49,670 nt of DNA, taken from Deltaproteobacteria bacterium TL4. Lineage in GTDB: Bacteria; SAR324; NAC60-12. The DNA is taken from the NCBI GenBank assembly GCA_051382335.1, contig JBBCAX010000216.1:1-49670 (forward strand), written 5' to 3'. Below the pieces are notes generated by a model. That model was not told where the DNA came from, searched no databases, and saw nothing but the letters and a program-made list of their open reading frames with translations. Numbering within the stretch: position 1 is the first letter of the stretch; each line of letters begins with the position of its first letter. Below, one piece after another: positions 6,273-44,727 of the stretch. Made by a program: the position numbers and the translations under genes.

Positions 6273-6339
6273 CAATAATGCGAATCAGGAGTTGAGGTTC
6301 TTGAAAATTCCTAATGTTAATCAAGCAAGGTACGAAATC

Positions 6340-7341
6340 ATGATGAAACAATCCGTAATAATGACGATCTTGGTACTTACGGTGATTGGAGCAAGTGGGT
6401 GTGCTTCAGGAACTGTTGAAAATATAATACGGTTGAAACAGACTCGTAAGTGCATTGATTGTGATTTGAAAAATGCCAATATGGAGGGAATTGATCTTTC
6501 CGAGGTGGATCTGACTCGCTCAGATTTAACAGGGGCAAATTTAAGAGGTACATTATTGCAGGGTGTTTTGCTTAGAAGGGCTAAATTGGATCGGGCTAAT
6601 TTGGAGGACGCTGATTTAGCTGGTTCAGATTTGCAAGGGGTCAACTTTTATAAGGCTAATCTTCGAGGTGCAAATTTAACAGGGGTTGATTTGACAGGGG
6701 CTAATTTTACTGCGGCATCTTTGAAGCGGGTTAATTTACAATATGCGAATCTTCAGGGGGTTGAGTTTGCCAATGTGAATGTGGGAGGAACGTCAACCTC
6801 TATGGGATTGGGCTTGCATTCTTCCAAGCAGACGGATTTTGAAGGAAAATCCCTTGAAGGTGCCGATTTGGAAGAGGCCAATCTCCAGGGCGCAAGCCTT
6901 CAAGGAGTGGATCTGAGAGGGGTGAATTTGATTGGTGCCAATTTGCAAAAAGGGAATTTGCAAAATGTGAATCTTGAGGGGATCAAATTGAATGGGAGTA
7001 ATTTAAAACAAGTGGATCTCTCGGGCGCAAATCTTCGTGGAACCGATTTGCAGAGAGCCTCTTTAGAAGGCGCAACAGTCATTGATGCTAATTTCCAAAG
7101 TGCAAATCTTGCGGGCGCCGATTTACAAAAGGCAAATTTTACAAAATCTAATTTGGAATCGGCTGATTTGTCAGGGGCTGATCTTTCAGGGGCGATTTTG
7201 ATGGGATGTCTCTTGATAAAGGCGAATTTAAAATACGCCAATCTTAAAGATACGAATCTTAAGGGGGCTAATCTGAGTGAGGCTACTTGGAGTAATGGCA
7301 GTCCTTGTAAATTGGGGTCCATTGGTCGGTGTATTCAGTAA
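6340..7341 (+). CDS. pentapeptide-repeat lipoprotein
   Basis: Long run of A(D/N)LxG-type repeats; CIDCDL N-cap; C-terminal TWSNGSPC...C cap; signal peptide ending GASGC. Start moved from TTG 6292 to ATG 6340. Confidence 0.9.
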   Translation: MMKQSVIMTILVLTVIGASGCASGTVENIIRLKQTRKCIDCDLKNANMEGIDLSEVDLTRSDLTGANLRGTLLQGVLLRRAKLDRANLEDADLAGSDLQGVNFYKANLRGANLTGVDLTGANFTAASLKRVNLQYANLQGVEFANVNVGGTSTSMGLGLHSSKQTDFEGKSLEGADLEEANLQGASLQGVDLRGVNLIGANLQKGNLQNVNLEGIKLNGSNLKQVDLSGANLRGTDLQRASLEGATVIDANFQSANLAGADLQKANFTKSNLESADLSGADLSGAILMGCLLIKANLKYANLKDTNLKGANLSEATWSNGSPCKLGSIGRCIQ

Positions 7342-9038: not shown

Positions 9039-10283
9039 ATGGAAATTATTGATAACACACTGTGGATTGGAGAGGTTTCCACAAATGAAATTGTTCAACA
9101 GTACGGCTCTCCAGTTTATGTCTATGATGAACAGGTGATACGCTCTCAATATAGACAGCTTGCGGAAAGTTTTCCGCATGTTTCCCTGCACGTGCATTAT
9201 GCCATGAAGGCGAATTCCAATCCTGCAATTCTTCGCATTTTGCTTCAGGAGGGATCCTGGATTGATGCTGTTTCACCTTTTGAGGTTCGCTTGGCTTTGG
9301 AAACGGGGTTTTCTCCTGCGCAGATTCTGTTTACAGGGAATAATATTACCCAAGAAGAGTTGGAATACTGCTTGGAACAGAAGGTTGCAATCAATATAGA
9401 ATCGTTAACCTGGCTGGAGCGTTTGGGGCAATTGAATCTTGGAGGCAAAGTATCGATTCGGATTAATCCTGGGATCGGGGCAGGATATCACGCGCACTGC
9501 ATCACAGGAGGGCCCCAATCAAAATTTGGTATTTATTATGATCAAATGGATCAGGCCATAAACATTGCAAAACAATCTGGGCTTTCTATTAATGGAATCC
9601 ATTCGCACATTGGAACAGGCATATTTGAAGCGGAGCCGATGTTAGAGGCCATGGACATGACCCTCAACGTGGCTCGTCAGATACCTGGGTTGCAGTTTAT
9701 CGATTTTGGTGGTGGCTTTGCTATTCCTTATAAATCGGAGCAACAACCTCTGAATGTTGAGGACCTGGGTAAAAGAATGAGTGAGCGTTTTTCAGATTTT
9801 TGTGAGAACTATGGCTGTTCTTTGAATATGAAGATTGAGCCGGGACGGTTTTTGGTGGCCTCAGCAGGATTTCTTATTGCTACTGTGAATACCCTGAAAA
9901 CAACGCCACGATATCGTTTTGCTGGAGTTAATTCAGGGTTCAATCATTTGGTCCGTCCCACAATGTACGGTTCCTATCATAAAATTTATAATGCTTCCCG
10001 TATGCAAGGTGAAGAAGAATCTGTGGTGATTGTGGGCAATATTTGTGAGAGTGGAGATATCTTTTCGCGCAGCAATAAGGATCAAATCGAACGACTCATT
10101 CCCAGACTACAACTAGGAGATCATATTGCCATTGCGGATGTTGGCGCCTATGGTATGGCGATGAGTTCTCAATATAACATGCGATCACGTCCCCCAGAAG
10201 TTCTGGTGAATGGAGGGACTTCCCGTTTAATACGTCAACGGGAAAGTTATGAGGATTTGATTCGTAATTATGTCAATGAGTGA
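9039..10283 (+). CDS. lysA: diaminopimelate decarboxylase
   Basis: YAMKAN PLP lysine, SKFG, HSHIG, DFGGG, EPGR, GNICESGD, GAYG...SQYN motifs. Confidence 0.93.
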   Translation: MEIIDNTLWIGEVSTNEIVQQYGSPVYVYDEQVIRSQYRQLAESFPHVSLHVHYAMKANSNPAILRILLQEGSWIDAVSPFEVRLALETGFSPAQILFTGNNITQEELEYCLEQKVAINIESLTWLERLGQLNLGGKVSIRINPGIGAGYHAHCITGGPQSKFGIYYDQMDQAINIAKQSGLSINGIHSHIGTGIFEAEPMLEAMDMTLNVARQIPGLQFIDFGGGFAIPYKSEQQPLNVEDLGKRMSERFSDFCENYGCSLNMKIEPGRFLVASAGFLIATVNTLKTTPRYRFAGVNSGFNHLVRPTMYGSYHKIYNASRMQGEEESVVIVGNICESGDIFSRSNKDQIERLIPRLQLGDHIAIADVGAYGMAMSSQYNMRSRPPEVLVNGGTSRLIRQRESYEDLIRNYVNE

Positions 10284-12364
10284 GGAGTATGAAAAATCTT
10301 TGGAATGAACAAGACGCCTCCCAATGCCAAGGGGATTCGTTAGAAATTCGAGTTTATACATCAAGATTGCTGGGCGCAGAGCCGAATTTGGTTCTTCATG
10401 GAGGGGGCAATACTTCTGTAAAGCTTAAAATCAAAGATCTCTTTGGCGAGGAACAGGAGGTTTTGTATGTTAAGGGCAGCGGGGTTGATTTAGGACGTAT
10501 TGATGTCAAAGGCTTTGTAGGCTTGGATCTCAAACATCTTCAAAAACTCCGACGTTTGGAGGTACTTTCTGATCTGGCAATGGAAAATCAATTACAGACA
10601 CATCAAATTCAGGCGACCTTGCTCGCTCCTTCTGTAGAAGCCTTGCTTCATGCCTTTCTTCCCCATAAATATGTGGATCACACTCATGCCGACAGCATTC
10701 TGACCCTAACTAATCAGAACAATGGAGAGTTTCTTATAAAAGATGCTTTGGGATCGCGAGTGGGAATCCTTCCTTATGTTATTTCCGGCTTACCTTTGGC
10801 TAAAAGTGTTGCGCAATTATATGACGAAAATCCAGAGCTCGAAGCGATTGTGATTTTGAATCATGGCATTTTTACTTTTGGAGATGAGGCAAAAACTTCC
10901 TATGAACGAATGATCGAATATGTGGATCGAGCAGAACGGTACATAGAGAAAAAAGCCAAAGACCGCTTCGCGCTTGGAACGACACCTGACTCTATTAATA
11001 AAAGTCGGGCGGCAAGAGTGATTCAGACAATTCGAGGCGCATGTGCCTATCAGGAAACCGATGGACAGTGGCATCGTTTTTATGCGGATGTCCAGGCGCA
11101 TCCCTTGTTGATTCAGGCTTCTCAGTCTCCGGATGCTCACTCTTTGTGTCAAAGTGGAGTCATCACTCCCGATCATGCGATTCGGACAAAAAACAAATTT
11201 ATTTTCCTCGAACATCTCCCTGAAGACGATAGTGAACTGAAGCACGTTGTGGAACATGCGGTTCAGCAGTATATCCTTGAGTACGATCAATATTTTGCGA
11301 ATTACTCAAAAAATCAGTCAGGTTTGCAGAAATTAGATTCGCTTCCAAGAGTTTTTTTGGTTTCAGGCATAGGCATTGTTGCCTTGGGAGAAACGAGAAA
11401 AGCGGCACAAGTTGCCTCGGATATTGCAAAACATACGATAGAAGTAAAACTTCATGCGGAAAGCATGGGAGGCTATGAGGCAATTGAAGAATTTCACGTT
11501 TTTGAGATGGAATATTGGGTTTTTCAACAAAGAAAACTCGGCAGAGTTGCTCCGTTACCCTTACAAGGGCAAGTTGCTTTGATTACAGGTGCCGGGGGGG
11601 CCATCGGTTTTGGTATTGCGGACCGTCTGCTGGCGGCCGGTGCTGTTGTGGTTCTTGCGGATATTGACGCGCCTCTGGTCCAAAAAGCTCACTCACTGTT
11701 GGTGGAACGATATCATGAAAGCCGAGTGGCGTCTTTGGTGATGGATGTGACGAATTATGACGCCATTCAGAAGGCGTTTGATGAAGTCAGTTATGAGTTA
11801 GGAGGGTTGGATTTACTGGTTCCAAATGCCGGTATTGCCCATGTTGCTAAAATTGAAACCCTGGATCCTGCCAAGTTTCAACAAGTCCTTGCGGTTAACC
11901 TGATGGGAACTTTTAATGTGATTAAAGCGTCTATTCCTATCTTTAGACGGCAAGGAACCGGAGGGAACATTGTTTTGATCAGCTCTAAAAATGTTTTTGA
12001 CCCCGGAGCCGCATTCGGTGCTTACAGCGCCTCTAAGGCCGCTGCTCACCAAATATCCAGAATTGCTTCATTGGAATTGGCAGAATATGGAGTGCGAGTG
12101 AATATGGTGAATCCTGATGCCGTGTTTGGAGATCAAAAGGTTTCTTCAAAACTATGGGATTTGATTGGACCTGATCGGATGAAGTCCAGGGGCTTAGATC
12201 CTGAGGGGCTGAAAGAGTATTATCGTCAAAGGAATTTGCTGAAAATTTCTGTACTTCCGGAACATGTTGGAAATGTTGTCGTCTTTTTTGCGAGTAATCA
12301 AAGTCCTACAACCGGTGCTACCATTCCGGTTGATGGAGGGGTTCCTTCTGCCGCACCCCGTTAA
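10280..12364 (+). CDS. bifunctional class II aldolase / short-chain dehydrogenase (RhaD-SDR, RhaEW-like)
   Basis: HGGGNTSVK, PSVE, HTH and NHG metal-site motifs in the N-half; TGAGGAIG, NAG, YSASK in the C-half. GTGA overlap with the lysA stop (alternative ATG at 10289). Confidence 0.9.
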   Translation: MRSMKNLWNEQDASQCQGDSLEIRVYTSRLLGAEPNLVLHGGGNTSVKLKIKDLFGEEQEVLYVKGSGVDLGRIDVKGFVGLDLKHLQKLRRLEVLSDLAMENQLQTHQIQATLLAPSVEALLHAFLPHKYVDHTHADSILTLTNQNNGEFLIKDALGSRVGILPYVISGLPLAKSVAQLYDENPELEAIVILNHGIFTFGDEAKTSYERMIEYVDRAERYIEKKAKDRFALGTTPDSINKSRAARVIQTIRGACAYQETDGQWHRFYADVQAHPLLIQASQSPDAHSLCQSGVITPDHAIRTKNKFIFLEHLPEDDSELKHVVEHAVQQYILEYDQYFANYSKNQSGLQKLDSLPRVFLVSGIGIVALGETRKAAQVASDIAKHTIEVKLHAESMGGYEAIEEFHVFEMEYWVFQQRKLGRVAPLPLQGQVALITGAGGAIGFGIADRLLAAGAVVVLADIDAPLVQKAHSLLVERYHESRVASLVMDVTNYDAIQKAFDEVSYELGGLDLLVPNAGIAHVAKIETLDPAKFQQVLAVNLMGTFNVIKASIPIFRRQGTGGNIVLISSKNVFDPGAAFGAYSASKAAAHQISRIASLELAEYGVRVNMVNPDAVFGDQKVSSKLWDLIGPDRMKSRGLDPEGLKEYYRQRNLLKISVLPEHVGNVVVFFASNQSPTTGATIPVDGGVPSAAPR

Positions 12365-12401
12365 AGCAAATCCTGCCATTCTCAAGGCGTCGACGTTTTT
12401 A

Positions 12402-12432
12402 AAGATCCCAAAGAGCAATCCTTTGGGATCTT
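12402..12432. other. intergenic perfect 12-bp hairpin (possible mRNA stabiliser or attenuator)
   Basis: AAGATCCCAAAG-agcaatc-CTTTGGGATCTT between the aldolase-SDR gene and lsrF; no U-tract on the + strand. Confidence 0.5.
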
Positions 12433-12505
12433 GGTTAAAGAGGATGATGGAAATCTATTTTAAATTTAAAATGTTTCAAAACAATCTAGATGAAAGGAAA
12501 TAATT

Positions 12506-13387
12506 ATGCCTGAAGCCGATGAACAGGAAATCAAAAATTATTATACAGAGATCCCTCAAGTAACCGAAGGTTTCTTTTTGAAAGGATCGAATTCTTTGGA
12601 TTGGGGAATGAAAAACAGATTAGCACAAATCTTTAATCCCAAAACCGGACGAACGGTGATGTTGGCTTTTGATCATGGATACTTCCAAGGTCCGACGACT
12701 GGCCTGGAACGTATTGATGTGACTATTCTTCCTTTAATTCCTTATGCGGATACCTTGATGTTGACCCGGGGAATTTTAAGAAGTATGATTCCTGCTTCGG
12801 CAACCAATTCCATTGTGCTTCGCGCTTCCGGGGGGCCTAGTATCCTCAAGGAACTTTCCAACGAAGACATTGCGGTGGATATTGAGGACTCCATTCGAGT
12901 CAATGCCAGCGCGATGGCTGTTCAGGTTTTTGTAGGAGGAGAATATGAAAAGCAATCCATCATCAACATGACTCGTTTGGTTGATAGGGGAATGCGGTAT
13001 GGCATTCCGACATTGGCCGTGACTGCCGTGGGTAAAAACATGGCCAGAGACGCAAAGTATTTCCGTCTGGCTACACGTATTTGTGCTGAACTCGGGGCAC
13101 ATTACGTTAAAACCTATTATATTGAGGAAGGTTTTGAAACGGTTACGTCTTGTTGTCCTGTTCCGATTGTGATTGCAGGAGGAAAGAAACAACCGGAGTT
13201 GGATGCATTAAAAATGGCCTACAAGGCAATTCAACAAGGAGCCAGTGGTGTCGATATGGGACGGAATATTTTTCAGTCTGAGTCTCCTGTGGGAATGATA
13301 CAAGCGGTGAGGGCGGTGGTTCATGATCAGGAAACCCCTGAAAAAGCTTTTGACTTATACAAAACGATTAAAAATCAAAAGAGCTAG
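12506..13387 (+). CDS. lsrF: 3-hydroxy-5-phosphonooxypentane-2,4-dione thiolase LsrF
   Basis: [60 protein letters not shown], all characteristic of LsrF. Confidence 0.93.
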
Positions 13388-13394
13388 TTTCTTT

Positions 13395-13428
13395 CAGTGA
13401 GCTCTTTTAAGGGCTCACTGCTGATTTT
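13395..13428 (+). terminator. probable intrinsic terminator after lsrF
   Basis: Hairpin CAGTGAGCTC-ttttaa-GGGCTCACTG (13395-13420) just after the stop codon, with a weak T-rich tail. Confidence 0.55.
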
Positions 13429-13573
13429 ATTGCAAGTGGAACCTGCCTTCTTTTTGATGACTCGAGATATAAGGTATTGGTATTGGTTTGTGACCAGTCA
13501 AGGAGTGGCCTTCTTTTTGAATGAGAACCTACAAGTCAGATATTTCTTAACTTTAGTGTGTTGAGAGGAAGGG

Positions 13574-20261: not shown

Positions 20262-21302
20262 CTAAATTACCTGATAATTGAAATCCCGTCGCTGAGGAAC
20301 AAATCCCGCTTCCTTCAAATAAGCACAAGCCTCTTCTTCTGTTCGGACTCCAAAAGATTTTAACACGTTCTCTTCTAAAACTGCGGAACTGATGTCATTA
20401 GCTCCAATACGGAGTGCAATTTTGCTCAAATCCTTGCCCATAACCATCACACTGATCTCAAGATTCTCAATGTTTTCCAAATACAAACGTGAAAACGCAA
20501 GGATTTTAAAGAATTGATCCGGCCTCATTTTTTGGATTTTAAAACGCTTGGTTTGTTGCTGATAAACCCATAGGATAAAGGCGTGAAACCCGCCTGTATG
20601 ATCTTGAATATTTCGCACTGCCTCAAGGTGCATCACAATTTCATCCAAACGTTCACCTCCCCCTACAACCATTGTCGCGGAACCTGGTAAACCATGACGA
20701 TGACATTCTTCCATAATGGAACACCATTCCTCAACGGTACATTTATTGGGGGATAACTCTTGACGCATACGTTCCACCAGCAATTCTGCACCTGCACCGG
20801 GTATAGAATCGACTCCTGCCTTCTTCAATAACGCTAACACCTCTTCAATCGGACGCTTTGTTACTTGGCTGATTCCCAAGATTTCAACAGGAGAAAAGGC
20901 CCGAATATTAATCCCGTACTGCTGTTTAACATGAACAATAATATCCGTATAATATTCCAAAGGAAGGCCAGGATGAACTCCCCCTTGAAAAAACATCTGA
21001 TTTGCTCCTTGTTTCAAGGCTTCTTCAACTTTTTGACAAACGTCATCTTTACTCAAGACATAAACAGATTTGTGTCCCAATTCCTTCTGAAAACTACAAA
21101 ACTTGCAATCAACCACACAAGCATTGGTATAGTTGATAATCCGAAACATCGTATATGAAGCGTATTGATCTCCGTGTTTCATACAACGAAATTCCCAAGC
21201 AGCCTTAGCCAACTCCAACCAGTCAAAATGAGTCAGTACCTCTAAACCCTCTTCAAATGACAGCCTTCCTCCGTCTAACACATTTTTTAAATAGCGATGC
21301 AT
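20262..21302 (-). CDS. mqnC: CofH/MqnC-family radical SAM protein, probably cyclic dehypoxanthine futalosine synthase
   Basis: INYTNACVVDCKFC (CxxxCxxC), QGGVHP, AFSPVEI, PGAGAELL, GAND...EENV motifs. MqnC versus other CofH-like proteins cannot be settled by eye. Confidence 0.65.
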   Translation of the reverse strand: MHRYLKNVLDGGRLSFEEGLEVLTHFDWLELAKAAWEFRCMKHGDQYASYTMFRIINYTNACVVDCKFCSFQKELGHKSVYVLSKDDVCQKVEEALKQGANQMFFQGGVHPGLPLEYYTDIIVHVKQQYGINIRAFSPVEILGISQVTKRPIEEVLALLKKAGVDSIPGAGAELLVERMRQELSPNKCTVEEWCSIMEECHRHGLPGSATMVVGGGERLDEIVMHLEAVRNIQDHTGGFHAFILWVYQQQTKRFKIQKMRPDQFFKILAFSRLYLENIENLEISVMVMGKDLSKIALRIGANDISSAVLEENVLKSFGVRTEEEACAYLKEAGFVPQRRDFNYQVI

Positions 21303-23443: not shown

Positions 23444-26266
23444 TTATTTGGCATGAACACCATAGACAGCATTTCTGAAAATCTTTGCAAGATCATCCTC
23501 TTTTTCAACAACCTTCGTTGCGGAGTGTGTCGTTTCCGCGCTGTTAGGATTGAACCAGAAGGCTGTTTTCACTTTTTCATCTTTGAGCGATATTTTTCGC
23601 TCACTTAAAAACCTCGCAATGGTCGTGTGAAAGGCCTTGTTTTTGAATGTATCCTGATAGTTGGCAGCGAGATGACTGGCCATAATTTTTAATTCTTTAT
23701 GATCATACTCATCGAGATACCAATTGGTCAGATTATCGCGATATAAAATCGAAAGACGTCCAAAACGCATCATACTATAAATGAAAAAGATCTCTAAATA
23801 ATGCTTTGGAGCCTGAATACAGTCTAAATAATGATAAGTCCGATACACAAAAAATTCGGTGATTTTGTCCGATAACCGCATAATGTTATCAGGACGGACA
23901 TAAGCCAAGCGCGAATCAACTGGATCTTTAATTTTCATCGAAGCTGAGTCAAATTCAAAAGCGGTTTTTTGCTCCTTAAGAGACCCGCGATTCACATAAC
24001 CATAATAGGAATTGAGGATACAATCCGCCAACGAATACAAAAAACTACTGGAGGTTGTTAAATCGACTTCGTCTGGTAAGTCATCTAACACCCCAAATGT
24101 ATCAAATCGTTTTCCAAGTTTACTCTCTGTTTGTAAGGATCGAAATTTCCATAATTTCGATTTTTCTTCATACCTTGCCTGAAGTCGTAAACGTGGCACT
24201 TTGAGGTGATGGAGAATACTTCTACGAACCATATTCCGTGGAGGTTCAAAGTTCTTTTGGTAGTAATGATACCAGATTTTAAACTCATTTTGATTACTTT
24301 CATCAGGAATCCCATGTCGGGTTTCAATATCCAAAACACGTTCAAGTGAGGCTTTAAACAACTCCTTCATCTCACTTTCAAACTCGATTACAGCTTTCGT
24401 TTCTCCTATATTCACATGTTCTAGAAACGTTCGTTGTGTTGAGCCTGGAGGAAAGGCACGATTTAGAAAATCTACCAAGAATTTTTCCCGGTAACTAGCA
24501 AAGACTCGCGTATCTCCTGGTTTGACAAAAACTTCAGAGACTTTGATATGCAATCCAAAACATAAATCAATAATCCTGGAAATTCTTTGACGCTCTTCTG
24601 CTTGTAAATATTCCAGATTTCCAAAAGCGATTTTCAAGATCTTATACTTAACCCACCAAGGATCCTTCGGTAACAACCCGTGTGTCTGTTCCATTTCCAA
24701 TAATTCCCATAATCGAAGTCCATAAGGCTTTTCCTTATCAGCCCTCTCCTCTGGAGTTGGTTCCTTGATAAACTCATTTAAAACATTCGGTTCCTTGATA
24801 ATTTCAATAATCATGATCAAATACTTGGGCTCATGAAGCATTTCAATTCGGAACAAATTCAACAGGGCTTTTGCTAAATTTCCTGAAGACGCTTTAAACG
24901 ACTCCCAATAGATGGCACCCCCATGAGCTAAAATGTATCTTAATTTTAAACGAGGTGTACTTCCAAGATTTACTAGCATTTCTGCGTAATCCTTGTAGAG
25001 ATGAATGGCTCCATAACGGATATAATCCAGAGTACGCTCGTAAAACGCAGGCGAGTCATTGATGATCTTTGGTAAGATAAAATGTGTAGGAATCATTGGA
25101 GTAAACTGAATCCCCGGCATAAGCACATCATAGGTTAATATAAACTCATATGCTGATCCAGACGCCTCTTTGGATTCCAGCGTTGTTCCGTGATAGCCTT
25201 TTCGGTAAGTTACATTATCGCACAAAAACATGTAAATTTCCGCTTTTGGAAATTTACGTTGAATATAGTCTTGAATCGTATTAACCCGCTGTTTAATCAA
25301 TTCATGCTGATTTTTTTGCTCCTCCGCATGCTCCTTTTGATGATTGCGTTTGATCAAATCCATCATCTCATGAAGAAACATCTGACGAAGTTTGGTACCA
25401 TCAGGTTTTTTTAATTCTTGCCGATACTCCCCTTCTTTGAGTAGCAGATACTTAAATAACTGAGGAAAGGCTTTCCGTACCTGTCCATTCGCCATTTTTT
25501 GCAATTCTTTTTTAACCTCGGGATCTTGTAACTTTTCGGCTGGAATTTTTTTGTTCCTCCGAATCGCACTCATCCAAGACTGAATTTCTTTTTTTAAGGC
25601 CAAAATGATTCGTTCATCATTCCAATCTTCCAGATCAAAACAAAAAGGATCCAATTCATACTGCACTTGAATATCCAAATCGGAAACAATCGGTTTATGA
25701 CCTACGGTTCCAATGGATCCTAAAGATGAAATACTTACAAAGGGACAAATTCCTTTTACACTTCCTTCTGAAGGGCGTGTATTAAACTCAGATTGGATAT
25801 ATTCAAAAAAACGTTCACGAAAAATCTCAGGCAAATTGTCTATGCCTTTCACTCCGTGTGGCGCACTTTCTAAATAAAGATTTGAAGAGGTTTCATATTC
25901 ATGTTCCCTTTCAATCCCATAAATATGTTCAATTTCAATTCCTGTATATTTTACCTCAGAATATTTGGGATCATTAACGTGTAGAAAAAACAGGATCTCA
26001 TAGAGCGCTTTTTTCATGTCTTCGCCGAAATTTTCAAAGGCCAACTGCATCCGTGTGTTATTAAACTCCTGAAAAAAAGTATTTCCTTCCTCAAAACTTT
26101 TCTTCAACAGATCCTCACGCTCTGCTTGCATTTCAATCCCTCTATAGAACAGAGAGATCAATCCACGCTCAGAAAGCATCTCAACTTCTGTTTTTTCGTC
26201 AGGTATTATCTGCACCGCAACAGGTTTCTTTTTTTTCGCAAAGGGATTCAAAGCCATAATTAGCAT
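23444..26266 (-). CDS. divergent class I adenylate cyclase-like nucleotidyltransferase
   Basis: SLGSIGTVGH...SDLDIQV Pol-beta motif; EASGSA, NLG, YWESFK...KALL...E and DPW blocks occur in the same order as in enterobacterial CyaA. Confidence 0.7.
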   Translation of the reverse strand: MLIMALNPFAKKKKPVAVQIIPDEKTEVEMLSERGLISLFYRGIEMQAEREDLLKKSFEEGNTFFQEFNNTRMQLAFENFGEDMKKALYEILFFLHVNDPKYSEVKYTGIEIEHIYGIEREHEYETSSNLYLESAPHGVKGIDNLPEIFRERFFEYIQSEFNTRPSEGSVKGICPFVSISSLGSIGTVGHKPIVSDLDIQVQYELDPFCFDLEDWNDERIILALKKEIQSWMSAIRRNKKIPAEKLQDPEVKKELQKMANGQVRKAFPQLFKYLLLKEGEYRQELKKPDGTKLRQMFLHEMMDLIKRNHQKEHAEEQKNQHELIKQRVNTIQDYIQRKFPKAEIYMFLCDNVTYRKGYHGTTLESKEASGSAYEFILTYDVLMPGIQFTPMIPTHFILPKIINDSPAFYERTLDYIRYGAIHLYKDYAEMLVNLGSTPRLKLRYILAHGGAIYWESFKASSGNLAKALLNLFRIEMLHEPKYLIMIIEIIKEPNVLNEFIKEPTPEERADKEKPYGLRLWELLEMEQTHGLLPKDPWWVKYKILKIAFGNLEYLQAEERQRISRIIDLCFGLHIKVSEVFVKPGDTRVFASYREKFLVDFLNRAFPPGSTQRTFLEHVNIGETKAVIEFESEMKELFKASLERVLDIETRHGIPDESNQNEFKIWYHYYQKNFEPPRNMVRRSILHHLKVPRLRLQARYEEKSKLWKFRSLQTESKLGKRFDTFGVLDDLPDEVDLTTSSSFLYSLADCILNSYYGYVNRGSLKEQKTAFEFDSASMKIKDPVDSRLAYVRPDNIMRLSDKITEFFVYRTYHYLDCIQAPKHYLEIFFIYSMMRFGRLSILYRDNLTNWYLDEYDHKELKIMASHLAANYQDTFKNKAFHTTIARFLSERKISLKDEKVKTAFWFNPNSAETTHSATKVVEKEDDLAKIFRNAVYGVHAK

Positions 26267-30338: not shown

Positions 30339-33300
30339 TTATTGTGTCTTCCCTGCTGGAGGCAAAAACTCAATTTTCACACCCGTCGTTGATAGAGAGA
30401 TTCTTAAATCACTGACATATTCAGAACCATTCGGACTAGGTTGAAAAAACTGTAATATCATAGAACTCGTCATTGGCTGTTCCACATCAGTCATAAATTC
30501 TGTTAATTGTGGCCATTTAACACGGAACCCTGCATAAAAATGAATGAAATCCGCAGAAAATCCAATGATTGAGGTTGCATTTGGAGGTACCGCACTTTCT
30601 GCAGCACTTTGAAGTTCGCCTGAAGCATCCCTATAAATTTGATCTCCATTAGCTAATTCAAATACAGAATTCTCACCTCCTCCGTTGCTACCTGTTGGAT
30701 CATCTACGAGAGAAACATAAACACCCCCAGTTGTTGCATGAATCCTAATGTCTGTAACGTTGTCAGTCGTATTATCAGCATGAGTGTAAGTTATGGTATA
30801 GATTTCATCGGTCGTTCCAGGAGTAATGCTACTCGTTGGTTGTAGCTCACCCTTTTTTGCATGCCATGATGTCCCAAATTTTAAGGAACCATCACTCCCG
30901 ACAGTAAATATTACTGTTGCGCCAGTCGGTACAGTTTCTCCACTTCTAGCAACTTCAATCGTTTGTCCATTTTCTAAAATGGCGTATAAACGATCGCCAA
31001 CGTTCAAGGTAACCTCGCTGTCACTACCGGTACCATCACCACCGCCATCACCACCGCTTGAGCAATTCAATCCGCCAGTATTCTTAGGCTGATCTAACAT
31101 CCAGTCTGTGAAACCACAAATTTGTTGTTGATTCAGAACATTAACGATATCTGAAGTTTTTGCGAATATTTGTACAGAAGTTAGTGCGAAATCAATCTCT
31201 GTAGCCTCTCCAGTTGGAGTGTTGACATGATTGCCTGTTGTAAAGGTACCTGAAAACACGACTTCTATCAGAAGCATTTTACAGTTAGCATCACCATATC
31301 TCAAATTTTTTGAGATAAACTGATTTCCAGTCACGATCAATGTTTCTCGGGTTGTTTCATTTGGATTTTCCATATCTTCCACACAAGGCGCTTCCCAAGA
31401 ACCCTCTAACCCTGTACCGCTAATATTGACTCTAGTTGATCCTTGCAATTCTAATTCATTGGGACGATCTTGAGTCATTTCCTCACCAAAGTGAAGCATA
31501 CCCGTGCTGTCAATCATGAAAATATCCTTCAGGACATCTCCGGGAGCCGGCATCTGGTTACTATATTCACCACCACCGGTGCCGTTGTTATTTGACGGTG
31601 GCATGAACAAGACATAGACACCACCACTTTCTGTCTTATGAACCTTTATGTCTGAAAGACTGTCCATTGAACCATCAACCTTAGTATGCACTATGGTATA
31701 GGTTTCCTCAGTCATTACAGTGTTAATGACACTCTCTGGGAGTTGATCCCCCCTTTTCGCATTCCATGATTTACCAAAATTTAAGGCACCTCCGTTCCCA
31801 ACGGTAAATATTACGGATGCACCGTCTGGTAAAATTTCGCTATTTCCAGCGATGCTAAATCCCTGGTCACCTCCCAAAATGACATACAAACGATCACCAA
31901 CGTTCAATGTCGTTCCGTTACCATCACCACCAGTGTCGTTTCCACCGTTTTCACCGTCGCTACCAGGCATAAAAAATTCGACGCTGATACCAGTTCCATC
32001 AAGCTTCACTTTCATATTTTTGACCGTACTCCCCTCATACACTAGCGCATACTCATCTCCAGTGGGTATAGCATAAATGGTGGCCATTTGACTGCCCCCC
32101 TTCTCTGCATGCCAATCTGGACCAAAGGTGATGAGAGCGTCATTTCCGACAGTAAACACAATGGATGCATTGGAAGGGAGAGACTCACCGCTTCGAGCGA
32201 TCTCAATTTTTGATTCGCCTAAAATCACATAGGCTCGATCATCTGGACCTAAGCTCATGCTCGATCCACCACCGTTAGTGTCACCTCCTCCGTCAGAACT
32301 GCCGCCAAATCCGATGCCCCCCTCAACAACACCATCAGCGTAATTATTTGAAAATACAACAATAACCAGTTGATTTTCTTTACTCATGAGTTCAGAAACC
32401 TGAGAAGTTTCCAGGACTTTCTTTGCTTCAGTATAAGCAAACGCGCCTTCAAATTTCCAGTCTGACGCTGTTGCCAACTCGAGTACTAATTCTGGACCTG
32501 ATGTGGTTTTTTTATAAATAGCAGCGGTTGTCAAGAAATCACCAAAACCTAAATCAATACCAAGACGATAACTCAAACTGACAATTTCTCCGTCCTTTAT
32601 GATTTCAAATTCAGCGTTTCCAAATATTCCACTCTCACTCATTGGATTCAATGGAAATTGGCGTGGTCCATTGGCAGGACCAGTACCGCCACCCGGTTGA
32701 AGTTTGACATACGCGGAATTGTCACGAATGTTGACATCCATGCCATAGGAAATATTATCTTCTCCAACCGTTCCAACCAAGAAATAGAATCCGCTATTTT
32801 GCAGATTATCTACGCTATTGCCCTCAGGAGTTGTAATTGTCCACCCATTTGCGGTCACAGGAACCAACTGTGCTTTTCCAGCTCGTGTTACCATCATCAC
32901 CGCTGCTAAACCACCATTATTGAGATCACTTGGAGGATTAGTCTCATTAGAAACAAATTGACTTTCCGCTCTCAAAAAAGTGTTGCCCATCGGATCTTGA
33001 TCACGGAAAAAAACAATCGCGTCATTCTGGAATAAATTTCTTTCAAAGAAACTTGGAGGCGGCTGTATACGAATAGATACTTCTTGCAGATCTGCATACA
33101 TCACAAACTCAAAATTTTGGACATCAGCATTCGTACTCTTCACATTGTAGAAATTTTCTCGCTGATCTTTCCTTGGCTGAGTTACCTTTCCACTCACTAC
33201 TCCTGGTCCCTGAAGATCAAAAGTATTTGTATCCGCGCTTTCCAAAATGGCTTGAGAACTGCTGATGGTCAAAGTCAATATTTTTGTATCGCCTGCCGGG

Positions 33301-36300
33301 GTGCTTCCTGCAAAGAAACTTCTATTGGAATAATAGATCTCATGTGTTCCAATACCTAAACTGGATTCAAAGGAACTTCCCCCTCCTTCACCGGGACCTG
33401 TGGGCACACTGTTGCCGGGAGGTAATATTCTTACCTGAATCTCAGCGGCAGTTGGATTGTCTTCATTATCAATCCAGAGATAGGTAATATCAAGGTCATA
33501 CTCTCGATTAAGCGTTGCATTGGAGATTCTGAAAATACCACCTTTGCCATATTTCAACTCAAGTTCTGTTGCATCAGAGCCTTCAACATTGATTTTCCAT
33601 CCATTATTGAACTTCACTTTCTTTTCACTTAGATAGACACGGATCATTTCCGCGCCAAGTTGGATTCCCGCCTGATCAACACTAAAGAAATCATTTTGAA
33701 ACAACAGAACCTTTGCAGTTACAGGAGCCACATTTTGAGTAAAGAGATTTGCGTTGAACAGTTCGGAGCCATTAGTTCCATTGCCATCGCCACCAGCAGG
33801 GCCAATGAAGAGTTCAAACCATCCCGCTTGAGGATCATTGCTCTGGATTTTTTGGCCTTCAAACTTGAAGGATTTACCGGAATCCAGTGATACATCAAAT
33901 CGAGCATCATTGTTTGTACTGCTGTCAACCGTTTTTTCAAAGATATTAATGGCATTTCTAGTCAGAGCGGTGAAAACCCCGGGAGGATTTTCAAACTGAA
34001 CGGAACTGACCTTGCTGCCAAAAGTGAAGGTCCATTGATTTCCACTTTGTACCACTGAAACATCCTTGTTTCCGTCTCCATCAAAATCATGATCTCCAAC
34101 CAGACCAAAGGAAGGCGGAGGTAAGAACCATGCAACTTTCATCTGACTACTGTTGATGAAACGAATGTCAAAATCTACACCCTGCTGTTCCTGAAGCGCA
34201 ACATACAAGAAAGAACCCGGATTAATGGTTTTGCTTGTTCCTCCTGCGTTCTCAATCTTACTTTCATTAGAAGCAGATCTGACATTAATGAAGTCTTTAT
34301 TACCATCCATCTCAATTACAGCACCGTCACTTGGACCAAGCCTATAAAACCCTGGTTGATTTAAATCTATTGAGGTTACTTGTTCTTTATCTTTTAAGAT
34401 TAACCAGTCAGAAACGGTACTTGCGAGAGTTAATACACTTCCACCATTCGACTCTAGTATGGCAACTGGAGTCTTCTCAACACCACATCGTTTTGAATAA
34501 GAGTCAGTACTAATTTCTCCACATGTCGGTTTGGTGATACTGTCTATTTTAATTTGTGCGGTTTTATTAAAATCAAGTTTTCCTTCGGTCAGAGGTGTAG
34601 GTGCGCTTCCAAATGCGGCATTTCCTACATTACTACCAAAAGTAAGTGATGCCGAAGCTTGGTCTGTCATAGCCGTCACAGTAAAGAGCACTTTTGTTGG
34701 ATCAGAACAAGTTGCTCCAAATTCAACCATCCCATTCGTAAAACAAACAGCGTCATTGGTTGCAAGCTTGAGTTCGTTATTAACACCGGCAGTTGCTCCT
34801 CCTGTTGTGGTAATCCCGTCAAAATCAGCGATACTCGCACCGATGAGTTCACCGGCTGTACTCAAAAAGGAGGTCAAGGTAAAATCACATGAACGTCCTC
34901 CAGGAATTCGTGGACCAATACGAAACTCAGGTTTCTTGATAACACCACCAGGTCCTTTTGCAGGCTCATATAAGTGATCTCGAAATTCAGAAATGAATTC
35001 TGTCATACTTTCTTTTCCCGCACAATAAATCTCCAATTGGTAATCCGTCGCGTCGGAAATACTATCCGCTGAAATGACAATGTCACGACCTATATCAATA
35101 GATGTTTTGTTTTTTTCAACCTCGCTAAAGAGTTGAGCTGACTCTGCGCCCACCTGAATTTTAACATTTGAGAAGACAATCGTTTGCCCTGCCGCAGGAA
35201 CCATGATTTGAGACTCAGTCGTTATTGAGGGGCGGGCTTCACAATCCATTGCGCCACACTTGAGAGGGTTTCCATCCAAGTCCAATGACTTACGGAATTT
35301 TATTGATGCCACAAATTTAGTACGCTTACCTTTCAAAGCTGTAAAGGATGTGGAATTTTGCGAAGGAGTGATTTTGAACGATGCTTCTTCAGAACTTACA
35401 AAATCCTGAGCAATTTTTAATCCTGTGACCTCTTTTGCCGTACAAGTAAGAGCGGTTAGACTTCCTTCACTTTGCTTTGGAGCGTCACATGTAAAAATCG
35501 TATAATACTCAGTCGCGTCGGGGAAAATGCTGGCATTTTGTAATGTCACCGAACGAATATCTCCAGGATAGACCCCACGAGTTCTAATAATGAATGAACG
35601 GCTTATAGAACCAGTAGTACTTCCTTCTTCGACAATTGAGGTAATTTCGATGCCGCTTCCACCACCACTTGAAACGCCAGCACTGCCAGCATTAGTACTG
35701 GTACCCGCATTCGCGACAGTACCGCTACTTGGCTTGATGTTCGGATCCCCATCATTGGGATCAAAAATCGCAGGCACACCGTCAAAGTCCGCGTCAAATA
35801 CATCTCCTATGGCTGTTTGCAGAGCTCCATCATAGTACAATTTGGGCAAGGTGCTTGAAGTTGTACAACCTGTGCCAAGACAAAACACTTGTTTTTCAGA
35901 TTTCACAATCTCCAAACCAATGTCCATATTCGCTTGAGGATCATTTGAAGGGCGATTACGAACTACTCGTGCCATATAAGCATAACTTGATCCCTCCCTG
36001 ATGGCAACAATATCTCCATCCGTTAAACCAGTAATGTATCCAATGGCTGATTCGGGTTTCGGAGACATGACATAAGAGCGGGTTTGTTGCTTGAATTGTA
36101 ACTTCACAAAAGTAATACCACTTCGACCTGCGTCCAAACGGACAGGGACTTTAGAATAGTCAAAGTTTGCTCCAAAATCAGCCACACTGGAAATCTTCTC
36201 ATTGAAGTATTCTCCTGCATAACGGATAAAAATCCCACTGGTTGCGGATTCCAAACCAACTGCGAGAGAATTGTTTGAATCCCAATCCACTTGTTTAGGA

Positions 36301-39300
36301 GCTATAACTCCTTGCTGTGGACCATTGAACCCACTAGGCGCTTCTAAGACCAGCCAATCTCCAAAAGCCAGGTTTTGACGCTGAATTCCCGCTTGTGACG
36401 CTTGATTACTGATCGGCCCCGCGTTAAATCCTGCTTCTGCAATTTGAACCTCTCCACGGGAGTTGATTTCAGCAAACCCAAAATTCAGGACTGCTCTTTT
36501 TTGTCCACTAGGATCCGTCATAACGTCTATGAATCGTAGTTCAATAACCCAAAATCCTTTATCAGGATCTCTAAACAGAAAAACTTGATCATTGATAAAT
36601 TTCGCAGGATCCAGCGTAATTGAAGTTGCTGCGGTTTTCGCATCGATTTTGTCTTTGAAGGAAGATGTCTGAGTTCGCAATGAGCGTCCAACAACCGGAG
36701 AGATCCCTTGCAATTCCTCACCTGCCGTTACCGTCAAAGTAAAACCCAATCCTTCAGTATCAGACATGGTTTGGTAAAGCGGAGCAAAAGCGGCATTGGT
36801 AGTGTCTTTCACTTTCAAGGAGTATTTTCCACCCGTTACAGACACTAAATAAAAGTCCAGTTTTCCACGGCCAGCTGTCTCGTCACTTTCGGTCACCATA
36901 ATAGGAGCACCTGGTAACTTAAAGTTGCTCAGATCCACGCCTTCTGGCTGAGACTTGGTGGGCTTGCCTTTGCTGTCAAATTCTATACCACGTTGTTGAT
37001 CAGACGTTAATCCCATTCCGGGAATGTTCACCATTTTCTGGTCTGAGCCTATCATGTAAGGAAATTCCTTGGGACAGACATTAATGACATTAGAAAAACC
37101 ATCGATATAGAATTGAAACTCTGGTAAATCATTCGAGTAACTGTCAATACCAAAGCGAATGACAAAGTCTCCAGGAAAAGTAACGTTATTTTCAGCACTC
37201 AAGACCATACTATAAGTCCGTTGCTTATTAGCATAGGATCCTTTATCCAGGGTATAGTCCGTTCCAGCGGTTAAAGCTTCTCCTTTGAAAAACTGACCAT
37301 TGTCCTTAGATACTGGAAATAAGTTTAAATTCAATACCTCAGAATTGTTTATTCCAGCGTTTGGATCTAACCCATCATAGCGTCCCACTGTACACTGAAC
37401 GGTCACACTACTGACATTTGTACCTAAGAACTGGGTTAAGTTTTGTGCCTTAAACTCAGGAAGTTCAGGCAAAGAACTGCTCAAAAGATTTTTCTTGGGA
37501 TCACTCATTTTACTTGCGGCTTCCGTAAAGGCCGCACTGTTCTGGATCGTTGTGATATTGAGAAGAGAAGCAATAATACCGGCAATGCTAACGTCAGAAC
37601 TTTTAGGAACGAGTTCTTTAAAGTTCTCGAAGTTTGGACGCCAACGAGTTGTTGTTTTAATTTTGATTTCTGTGTAGAACCCTTTTTTATCTTCAATGAG
37701 ATGTGTTCGTTCCAACAACATGTTCAGCAAGAAAAACGCCGTCTGAATATTAACCTTAGTTTCACTGGTAAGCGTCTGCCCATAAAGATTTTGAGGAATT
37801 GCGGCCGTTAACCCGCGTGCAATCGCGTCACTAGCCGAAACAAAAGCAGGAGTGGCAGGAATATTTTTTGCGCGATTTCCTAAAACTAAATCCTTATATC
37901 CCTCTTTTGTTGCTGGGTATTGTGCTTCCACTTCATCTAAGTTGAAGCTACCCTTTTGTTGGAGTCTCTGAAGATTTGCATTAATCGCATTACCCGAAAA
38001 CATAGAGTAAAAATTTTCACTTTGGGTCAAGAGATTCGCTGTTTTCACAGGATCTGTCCCAAGCGTAATACTCAAAGCGCGAATTAATTGACTGCTATCA
38101 ACGGTTGCTCCGCTTGTTGGCGCGATTTGACGTCCTGAAAAGATAGGAAATCCTTCAGGAGTAATATTGACAGGCTCTGAGACCCACTTGAAGTTTTTTG
38201 CTAAAATTGCAGCAATATCCTTGATCGCAATGGTTTTATCATTGTTATCAATTAACTTTGCAATCGCCTCATCCGAAATCAAGGTGCCTGCACCATTCTG
38301 GATGGTACGTGCCATTTCATGGAATAACCGAACACGATCCACTTTCCTGGAATCAGAAGAAGTTGCCGTGCCTTTAAACAGTTTATCCTGAGCAGCATCA
38401 ATGGCAGCCTGGTTTAAACCAGCTAATTTAGTAGGAGTGCCCGCAGGATTTGACTCATTGGCAAGAGAAGGTGCACTTGCGAAATCGCCTGTGATGGTTC
38501 CTGAACCGATTTTAAATGCCCGGTAACTTGGCTCTCCCAAAGCACGCATTCCAGGAATTTCAGCATCAGAAAGGTGAGGCGGTGCAGGGAGATTCACGAC
38601 AACGACCGATGTTTTACTACCGTTATCTTGAGCAACAAGTACAGGAAATCCCATCGTTAAGAAAAATCGCTGTATTGCCAGCTTAATTCCTGTGTTTTTA
38701 CTCTCTGCAAAACTGGCACTACTTGTGACTGAACTAAATTGTGAATCCGCTGCGGCAATCGCATAAACCCCTTGGCTCATCGTATTGGAAAGTCCCGCTA
38801 ACAATCCAGATTCCTCACTACTCAAGGAGGAGGAGAGGTTGCTGTTAGTATTGGTTGCAGAAGCCGACAAAACCACACTTGAGGCAGCAACCGTTTCATC
38901 TTTTTTTGCTAATTCCGTTTGTAGAGAAGCCAGTTGATCAGCGTCCATGGTAACGACCAGATCCTTTTCCTGTGAATTAAATACATCACTTGCAGATTGT
39001 CCGTCAGGAATGCTAATCGTGCTGGTATCAGCTGTTGCCAATACGGTGGTCACGGTATCTTCCACACTTGATAAAATTGCTTTGATTAATGTGTCCGCAA
39101 GGGCACCATCTCCCAACAATCCTCTAATCGGATCCAGAGCTGTCTTGACTGCAGTAAGAATCTGTTTAACTAGGCGGTGTACAATTGGATTAACTTTGGT
39201 TACGTTAGGCTCTCCTTTGTCATCCAGATTGTTGGGATCCCCAATAGAAGTCATCGCCATGGGCTGTTCATTACCATTGCTGTCTTTACGAACAATAACG

Positions 39301-40028: not shown

Positions 40029-40881
40029 AGTCCCTCCAGACTTTTTGAAACTCATTAGTTTCAGAATATTAATAATGTGACCCCCCCTCAGTCACAGGAT
40101 CTACAACTGAGACATCTCCACAGTGGAGATGCTCCAATCAAAACCAAAGAACATCTATTCGTGATTTTACCATCATAACTTTGTTTTGAAAACATTAACT
40201 TCAAAATAATTATCCCCTTCCTACAATTATTGAACGTCACCCTTTGAAGAGATCATTTCATCAAATCCGGTTCAATTTTGTCATTCACAACAATACCTGA
40301 ACGAACCTTCTCATCTGCAAAAAAAAAAAATCATCTCTAGTTTAATTGTTTTTCAAAGCTCTATCATCCGACAAAACAAATCCAACCTTCACGACACTTG
40401 TCTAGGGCTCTAACATATTCAATTCACAAAAGTCAACAATCCGTTCTCCTAAACGAGGATTTAGATTTTTTTTCATCGAACTAAAAAAAAATGCTCATAG
40501 AGTGCCAAGAATAGATTACACCTAACTTCTTAAAAGAATAACGCTAACTCAAAATATATAAAGTAAAATCAACCTATTCACCTAATATGCTGTTCACCTT
40601 TAGTGAACAAGGATATTCTTTCTATTGAATTTTTTTTGCAGTTGTGTGTTTGGAGGTACTTCCTCCAAATTTCATTGATAAAATCAAGGATAAAGCCTCT
40701 GACTTTATCAAAAAGCGGATAGGCACAATTTTTTTTTTTTGATTTCCAATTCGTTGAAATCTTTGGTATGGACATTCGTAAGTGTTGTTCTCCAATAAAA
40801 ACTATAATAGCTAAATTTGGCACCCTATTGTAGAGAGCAATATGCCATCTTTTTGAATCACGCACTACAGGAGAAATTATC

Positions 40882-44268: not shown

Positions 44269-44727
44269 TCAATCAGTCTCTTCAACGGATGCCAACCAGT
44301 CTGATAAATAAGAACGTATTTCTTGAGCACAGATGCCTTCTGTTACCTCAAGGCCCGCCTCTTTTAAAAGCTGAATTCCCTTGCCGTTGACCTTTGGGTG
44401 TGGATCTCGGATCCCAACCACAACCCTGGCCACCTTTTTTTCAATCAATGTTAAAGCGCAGGCCGGAGTTCTTCCAAAAAACGAACAGGGCTCCACCGTA
44501 GAATAAACAGTCGCATCTTTTACCGTCAATTGTCGGGATTCAGCACTCTTCATAGCTACAATTTCCGCATGATCGCCCCCGGGAGGACACGTATTTCCCT
44601 CTCCGATAATTCCCGTGTCGTTTACAATGACGCAGCCCACATAAGGATTGTCTCCGGTCTTTCCTTTGACCTTTTTCCCCAACTCAATGGCATGCTTCAT
44701 ATAAGTGATATCATTTTTATCAGACAT
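44269..44727 (-). CDS. stand-alone RibD-type zinc deaminase domain
   Basis: NPYVGCVIV, HAE, EPCSFFGRTPAC and DPHPKVNGKG motifs. The ORF ends where the reductase domain of RibD would begin. Confidence 0.85.
   Translation of the reverse strand: MSDKNDITYMKHAIELGKKVKGKTGDNPYVGCVIVNDTGIIGEGNTCPPGGDHAEIVAMKSAESRQLTVKDATVYSTVEPCSFFGRTPACALTLIEKKVARVVVGIRDPHPKVNGKGIQLLKEAGLEVTEGICAQEIRSYLSDWLASVEETD

Follow-up and report, generated by a model that had tools for sequence, protein, structure and literature searches.

What does lsrF, known for its part in the breakdown of the quorum-sensing signal AI-2, do in a genome that lacks the rest of the lsr operon, and why does it follow an aldolase fusion? 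The question is raised by contig JBBCAX010000216.1 of Deltaproteobacteria bacterium TL4 (SAR324; assembly GCA_051382335.1), the whole 49,670 nt of which is referred to here as the window. An open reading frame (ORF) for a class II aldolase/short-chain dehydrogenase/reductase (SDR) fusion occupies nt 10280..12364 of the forward strand and, counted from a GTG, encodes 694 aa; its likely start is the ATG at 10289, where homologues open instead of at the GTG. After a spacing of 141 nt it is followed on the same strand by lsrF (12506..13387, 293 aa). An earlier note on this DNA had described the fusion as directly followed by lsrF, which was borne out, and both genes are intact: the fusion scores 964 bits against NF006194 (cut-off 686), making it a member of the PRK08324 aldolase/SDR family with its two-domain architecture, and LsrF scores 495 bits against NF006081 (cut-off 297). 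The evidence set out below indicates that 5-deoxyribulose-1-phosphate is probably oxidised at C4 and then cleaved by LsrF with coenzyme A (CoA) to dihydroxyacetone phosphate (DHAP) and acetyl-CoA.

The earlier note had reported that lsrK, lsrG, the Lsr transporter, rhaA and rhaB are missing from the window. This holds, and extends to the whole genome (completeness 100%, contamination 2.6%), where a complete lsr or rha pathway was looked for and none was found. Whole-genome tblastn searches (E 1e-3) with E. coli LsrR, LsrB, LsrC, LsrD, LsrG, RhaA, RhaD, RhaM and RhaT gave no match, and neither RhaI nor LuxS was found. The LsrK and RhaB queries matched FGGY kinases alone, at 21–28% identity. The genome has three of these, GlpK and two unassigned, the best scoring 159 bits against an LsrK cut-off of 528. 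Matches to lsrA were generic ABC ATPases only (about 30% identity). The LsrG family model NF007791 likewise found no match in the genome, and in the control genomes nothing exceeded its cut-off either.

Genes for the salvage of 5'-deoxyadenosine, by contrast with those of the lsr and rha pathways, are present. Both mtnA (TIGR00512, adjoining apt) and mtnP (TIGR01694, near metK and metA) were found, so the lack of an mtnA-type isomerase, which would have spoken against a salvage role, does not apply. The genome also carries 43 radical-SAM (S-adenosylmethionine) matches. The fusion is the sole match to the class II aldolase family (PF00596), hence there is no Ald2/DrdA or MtnB; acireductone dioxygenase (MtnD) and a RuBisCO-like protein were looked for in the genome and not found. 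Because none of these enzymes was found, the product of MtnA has no known outlet in this genome other than the fusion-lsrF locus.

The description of lsrF as well conserved was also correct. The window LsrF, a thiolase of the LsrF family, shares 61% identity with the E. coli enzyme and keeps D57, H58, K203, D251, R254 and G226/G227/G253 (E. coli numbering), so that all of the catalytic and phosphate-binding residues described for the lsr-operon enzyme of E. coli and Salmonella (PDB 3GKF, 4P2V; PMC2728841) are retained. The E. coli enzyme is described in PMC7828210, citing work of 2014, as transferring an acetyl group, with DHAP and acetyl-CoA as products. The difference lies in the supply: the operons of E. 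coli and Salmonella include lsrK, lsrG, lsrR and a transporter, all missing from TL4, and the substrate of the window LsrF would come via a dehydrogenase and not via LsrK and LsrG.

Two positions of LsrF vary with gene context. The window protein has F143 and A175, where all nine lsr-operon sequences have Tyr and Gly; LsrFs linked to the fusion or to a zinc dehydrogenase (see below) mostly have F143/A175. These positions could possibly serve as a sequence marker of context. Two LsrF subtypes (about 80% and 45% identity to the window LsrF) are found on either side of the fusion. A shorter subtype (about 263 aa, 45–48% identity to E. coli LsrF, often with N251 replacing D251) pairs with both kinds of dehydrogenase, as at L011:5022-5813.

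The fusion consists of three parts, an N-terminal metal site, a degenerate middle domain and an NAD-type SDR, with Pfam domains Aldolase_II at residues 26–221 and adh_short at 431–615. The metal site is kept (E120, H134, H136, H195, numbered from the GTG at 10280), as are the SDR motifs (TGAGGAIG at 436, D461, S569-K570, Y582-xxx-K586). In the middle domain the aldolase fold is repeated only weakly (HHalign probability 38% over 37 columns). A basic residue (Lys or Arg) directly follows the SDR catalytic Ser in 145 of 145 full-length fusions, and is also found in sorbitol-6-phosphate dehydrogenase (SrlD); this would fit a phosphorylated substrate. A confident structure model was obtained (predicted local distance difference test 93; 74-row alignment). 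Fold searches with it returned single-domain matches only (3M4R, and secondary-alcohol SDRs including SrlD); there was no solved full-length relative among them, and they give no substrate information. Scores against the two models named for rhamnulose-1-phosphate aldolase/SDR proteins fall below their cut-offs, at 504 bits for TIGR02632 (RhaEW; cut-off 567.75) and 483 bits for NF006189 (cut-off 634). The fusion is proposed to be a C4 dehydrogenase of a deoxy-ketose phosphate.

The adjacency of the two genes is conserved. Species genomes gave 222 related stretches; in the best 80 of these, lsrF occurs at 30 fusion loci, always on the same strand and within 1 kb, and mtnA at 15. The 37 closest loci (at least 48% identity, other species) include 28 with a same-strand lsrF at 1 kb or less, and because of this the pairing is not a matter of chance; among the other 43, two have lsrF and 14 have mtnA. 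Neither lsrK, lsrG nor rha genes occur at any of the 80. A second set comprised 72 genomes of the same phylum as TL4, each at least 80% complete, in which LsrF was counted at 60% identity or more and the fusion as a fusion-length aldolase match. LsrF is found in 29 of them, the fusion in 42 and both in 28, with 23 adjacent by coordinates; 26 of the 29 LsrF-positive genomes have mtnA. LsrK exceeded its cut-off in none of the 72, a search in which E. coli K-12 was positive as a control and the built-in controls did not pass. Contiguous mtnA-fusion-lsrF was seen in six of 20 adjacent loci that were fetched, five of the six from one genus, and plasmid records show mtnA-fusion (Ruegeria) and mtnP-mtnA-fusion (Tistrella). 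In a FastTree reconstruction of 88 fusions, four separate branches include fusions that adjoin mtnA, and four RhaEWs from rha contexts form a clade of their own with 34–36% identity to the window fusion. The synteny comparison proposed in the earlier note thus gave conserved adjacency, operons with mtnA in relatives, and no lsrK or lsrG.

The view from lsrF is different, and provides the strongest argument for the proposed mechanism. Among the best 80 of 567 metagenome stretches centred on LsrF, 29 have the fusion and 28 an adjacent zinc dehydrogenase of the medium-chain dehydrogenase/reductase (MDR) type, which lies directly after lsrF (for example L190:7769-8785, + strand, and 27 further metagenome loci). 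Two more have an MDR further off, and neither partner is found at four long and 17 short loci. No locus of the 80 has both the fusion and the MDR, and none has lsrG or lsrR. The MDR falls in no named NCBIfam family, and TL4 has no close copy of it (best match 27%). One MDR locus, L331, has the order metK-ahcY-lsrF-dehydrogenase-mtnP...mtnA (dehydrogenase at L331:8697-9731).

Counts per phylum, which cover the loci returned only, show the same exchange. The phylum of Desulfonema magnum (best 30 of 34 LsrF loci) has 21 MDR, one fusion and eight other contexts; Pseudomonadota (best 30 of 46) 25 fusion and five other; Chloroflexota (14 loci) five MDR, five fusion and four other; and Planctomycetota (best 30 of 43 genomes) 15 MDR, three fusion and 12 other. 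Eight of ten lower-ranked pseudomonadotal matches that were fetched are true lsr operons. Across five phyla, then, LsrF is usually partnered by one of two unrelated dehydrogenases, and at least 12 switches of partner are seen on the LsrF tree. Since the partner is the fusion or the MDR and never both, what LsrF needs seems to be a dehydrogenase and not an aldolase; and because alcohol-dehydrogenase chemistry is common to the two partners, the compound handed to LsrF is most likely an oxidised sugar phosphate.

Several other genes recur around these loci. A 128-aa gene of the glyoxalase/vicinal oxygen chelate (VOC) fold occurs with the fusion as well as with the MDR (L020:5270-5656, L109:9878-10261, L196:8994-9380); it is present at 15 of the 37 closest fusion loci and nine of the 80 LsrF loci and was not found in the TL4 genome. 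Its product may act in methylglyoxal removal or as a diketone isomerase. In loci of the Desulfobacterales type, genes for NAD kinase, metK and ahcY are repeatedly found close to the pair (L027:1875-2729; L154, L155, L159, L160). A dhaK/dhaL-type kinase context of LsrF, mostly within one tree clade (L225:4200-6870, L360, L141, L302-L306), probably reflects another sugar pathway.

In the route proposed here, MtnP and MtnA, encoded elsewhere in the genome, would make 5-deoxyribulose-1-phosphate from 5'-deoxyadenosine, the by-product of radical-SAM enzymes. The SDR domain of the fusion would then oxidise C4 with NAD+ to give 3-hydroxy-5-phosphonooxypentane-2,4-dione, and LsrF with CoA would cleave this to DHAP and acetyl-CoA. 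That C4 oxidation yields exactly the named LsrF substrate had been pointed out in the earlier note; the chemistry is correct and matches the LsrF annotation. In the absence of LsrF, the diketone would be hydrolysed to DHAP and acetate by the metal-binding aldolase-like domain, much as RhaEW gives DHAP and lactate, and the methylthio analogue derived from 5'-methylthioadenosine (MTA) is perhaps a second substrate. The substrate and products, the order of oxidation and cleavage, and the part played by the aldolase-like domain are all inferred. A similar logic operates in non-phosphorylative L-rhamnose catabolism, in the diketo-hydrolase branch formed by the SDR LRA5 and the hydrolase LRA6, where oxidation at C4 to a 2,4-dione precedes a retro-Claisen cleavage. 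That branch differs in using an unphosphorylated acid and a hydrolase of the fumarylacetoacetate hydrolase family, with no CoA.

Two described systems are closer. The DHAP shunt, or 5-deoxyribose salvage (MtnP or MtnN with MtnK/DrdK, MtnA/DrdI and Ald2/DrdA), has, as outlined in PMC6079011 and PMC10986504, the same entry enzymes, intermediate and DHAP product. TL4, however, has no stand-alone Ald2/DrdA, and the proposed exit by oxidation and thiolysis would yield acetyl-CoA and NADH in place of acetaldehyde. RhaEW (YuxG), the rhamnulose-1-phosphate aldolase/lactaldehyde dehydrogenase of PMC3870299, shares with the window fusion its architecture, metal-binding His triad and NAD-type SDR, whereas the window fusion lies in a separate clade at 34–36% identity and scores under the TIGR02632 cut-off; rha genes are missing, and the neighbours of such fusions are lsrF and mtnA. 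According to the data given in PMC3870299, RhaEW needed NAD+ to form either DHAP or lactate, which its authors read as aldolase action followed by aldehyde dehydrogenation. These data could also be explained by oxidation to a 2,4-dione and metal-assisted hydrolysis, and an oxidation-first order fits because, in that account, no DHAP is released without NAD+. Oxidation with metal-assisted hydrolysis would also explain why some fusions stand alone and why an aldolase-free MDR can sit beside LsrF.

The distribution of stand-alone aldolases was compared with that of LsrF in 101 genomes from the phylum of Desulfonema magnum, in which 11 long, low-scoring aldolase matches were treated as fusions (two checked directly). 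Almost all have mtnA (99/101); 34 have LsrF and 78 match the class II aldolase family. Nine of the 34 LsrF-positive genomes have a stand-alone aldolase of this class, compared with 58 of the 67 LsrF-negative ones (Fisher p 3e-9, a value overstated by kinship), and 19 of the 23 genomes without any class II aldolase match have LsrF. A lineage-corrected test used the MtnA tree as a proxy and covered 60 of the 101 genomes (31 LsrF-positive, and the first 29 LsrF-negative with a whole mtnA). Of nine independent pairs, 4.6 changed in the expected direction, 0.0 in the opposite direction and 4.4 were unchanged. The complementarity is suggestive.

A number of results weigh against this route. The lineage-corrected anticorrelation was not significant (median p 0.0625). 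Linkage to mtnA is patchy: in TL4, mtnA and mtnP are on other contigs than the fusion and lsrF; mtnA is present at only one of the 37 loci of the window's own fusion clade; 14 of the 15 mtnA-linked fusion loci come from one phylum; and in widened loci mtnA lies within about 8 kb of none of ten pseudomonadotal and chloroflexotal fusions and of one of 20 MDRs (L331 alone). Some LsrFs have other neighbours, such as dhaK/dhaL or an FGGY kinase. Many fusions have no LsrF: this is so in 14 of 42 genomes of the own phylum, in all five genomes tested from other phyla, and at 41 of the 43 more distant fusion loci. Finally, the aldolase site of the fusion is intact, and plain aldol cleavage is therefore possible. 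The earlier suggestion that SDR and LsrF could form a salvage route is nevertheless supported by the conserved pairing, the presence of mtnA and mtnP, the lack of an lsr or rha pathway and the replacement of the fusion by a zinc dehydrogenase. It needs qualifying in that the fusion often works without LsrF (5/5, 14/42), so that LsrF is an optional exit, and in that the sugar may be the 5-deoxy or the 5-methylthio form.

Could the same enzymes and chemistry act mainly on another product of the same entry steps? The substrate might be 5-methylthioribulose-1-phosphate from MTA, giving DHAP and methylthioacetyl-CoA, or ribulose-1-phosphate, giving DHAP and glycolyl-CoA. In three relatives of one own-phylum family (L102, L137, L138), the fusion has speD and speE, a source of MTA, at a distance of no more than 7 kb; the two genes were named from sequence motifs. 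The TL4 genome has two spermidine-synthase-like matches, both weak aminopropyltransferase hits, set against its 43 radical-SAM matches. Both the deoxy and the methylthio sugars are described in PMC10986504 as being handled by MtnP and MtnA, but the E. coli LsrF moves an acetyl group (PMC7828210), and the window enzyme keeps every active-site residue checked. A methylthio or ribulose main substrate is accordingly judged unlikely.

A conventional DHAP shunt carried by a single polypeptide, with the aldolase domain cleaving the deoxy-ketose phosphate, the SDR taking the aldehyde and LsrF a helper with some other role, would suit the intact aldolase motifs and the many fusions without LsrF, and agrees with the RhaEW reading published in PMC3870299. 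It leaves unexplained why the partner of LsrF is the fusion at some loci and an aldolase-free MDR at others, but never the two together, why it occurs in 19 of the 23 genomes that lack a class II aldolase, and why, in the data of PMC3870299, RhaEW releases no DHAP without NAD+. This explanation is improbable as well.

A deoxy-ketose phosphate unrelated to SAM is a further candidate, whether from breakdown of 1-deoxyxylulose-5-phosphate or from an imported sugar, as is a DHAP-catalysed cycle from acetaldehyde to acetyl-CoA. Chemically, C4 oxidation of 1-deoxyxylulose-5-phosphate would yield the same diketone, and the patchy mtnA linkage and the LsrFs beside dhaK/dhaL or FGGY kinases would be accommodated. 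Yet the conserved neighbours in the closest loci include no sugar kinase, no transporter and no regulator, mtnA adjoins the fusion on four separate branches of its tree, and dxs is present in TL4, in 69 of the 72 own-phylum genomes and in 31 of the 34–35 LsrF-positive genomes of the second phylum; these origins are quite improbable. A bypass of DXS, with LsrF running in reverse followed by reduction to 1-deoxyxylulose-5-phosphate, was rejected because of the same dxs distribution. Catabolism of AI-2 or rhamnose, for which the family names alone speak, was rejected as very improbable on genome content and trees, given a complete genome without lsrK, lsrG, lsrR, lsrB, luxS or rha genes, the absence of lsrK from all 72 relatives and the separate clade of the rha-context RhaEWs.

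With oxidation at C4 and cleavage by LsrF as the preferred reading, the fusion-lsrF pair is likely a new exit branch of 5'-deoxyadenosine salvage, and apparently one not described before: no account of it was found in the open-access literature, a search that mostly did not extend to subscription journals. PMC6079011 states that the known 5-deoxyribose disposal clusters are far from ubiquitous and that there must be further routes. In many anaerobes and marine bacteria mtnA is kept without a known downstream enzyme, and oxidation followed by LsrF cleavage would supply named genes for this gap. If it operates, the C2 fragment is retained as acetyl-CoA and free acetaldehyde is avoided. An oxidation-first order would also offer a simpler explanation of the NAD+ requirement of RhaEW. 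The thousands of 'lsrF' annotations outside lsr operons are probably unrelated to AI-2; in ammonia-oxidising archaea, lsrF is counted among quorum-sensing genes in PMC11442133.

A wider scheme can be put forward only tentatively: the ancestral and widespread job of LsrF might have been a CoA-conserving exit for SAM waste, fed by two unrelated dehydrogenases, with later recruitment into the lsr operon, and the whole RhaEW family might oxidise first and then cleave a 2,4-dione. In that case the family's labels 'aldolase' and 'lactaldehyde dehydrogenase' would need revision, and so would reliance on lsrF as a marker of quorum sensing. In a FastTree reconstruction of 119 LsrFs and five outgroups, the lsr-operon sequences (three representatives of the nine) nest inside fusion- and MDR-linked ones. 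The sequences for this tree were sampled around the query, and one of its rows (L224) carried a wrong label as fusion-linked; for these reasons the recruitment is a lead only.

Upstream of the fusion lies lysA (diaminopimelate decarboxylase; 9039..10283, + strand; TIGR01048 over cut-off), the 3' end of which overlaps the 5' end of the fusion ORF, and the two are likely carried on one transcript. Since only one other locus (L131) among 120 checked has lysA beside the fusion, lysA was set aside and is probably outside the pathway. A hairpin in the gap between fusion and lsrF (12400..12432, + strand; intergenic z = -2.3) lacks a U-tract and was not predicted to be a terminator. Directly 3' of lsrF, a terminator-like hairpin (13395..13430, + strand; 11 pairs and a T-run, a consensus match only) likely marks the end of a lysA-fusion-lsrF transcript. 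A promoter scan gave six sites against 9.2 expected and is uninformative on promoters.

Other features of the window are further from the pair. About 7 kb away, a gene on the reverse strand (20262-21302) encodes an MqnC-like radical-SAM enzyme, a putative producer of 5'-deoxyadenosine, which scores 399.7 bits and so falls below the cut-off of 428.1. The same strand carries genes for a 940-aa protein with a weak match to class I adenylate cyclase (23444-26266) and for a stand-alone RibD deaminase domain of 152 aa with the reductase half absent (44269-44727), and an ORF of 3238 aa with no Pfam match above cut-off (30339-40055). On the forward strand, nt 6292-7341 encode a pentapeptide-repeat protein with a likely lipoprotein-type N-terminus, for which the Alr5209 model alone exceeded its cut-off.

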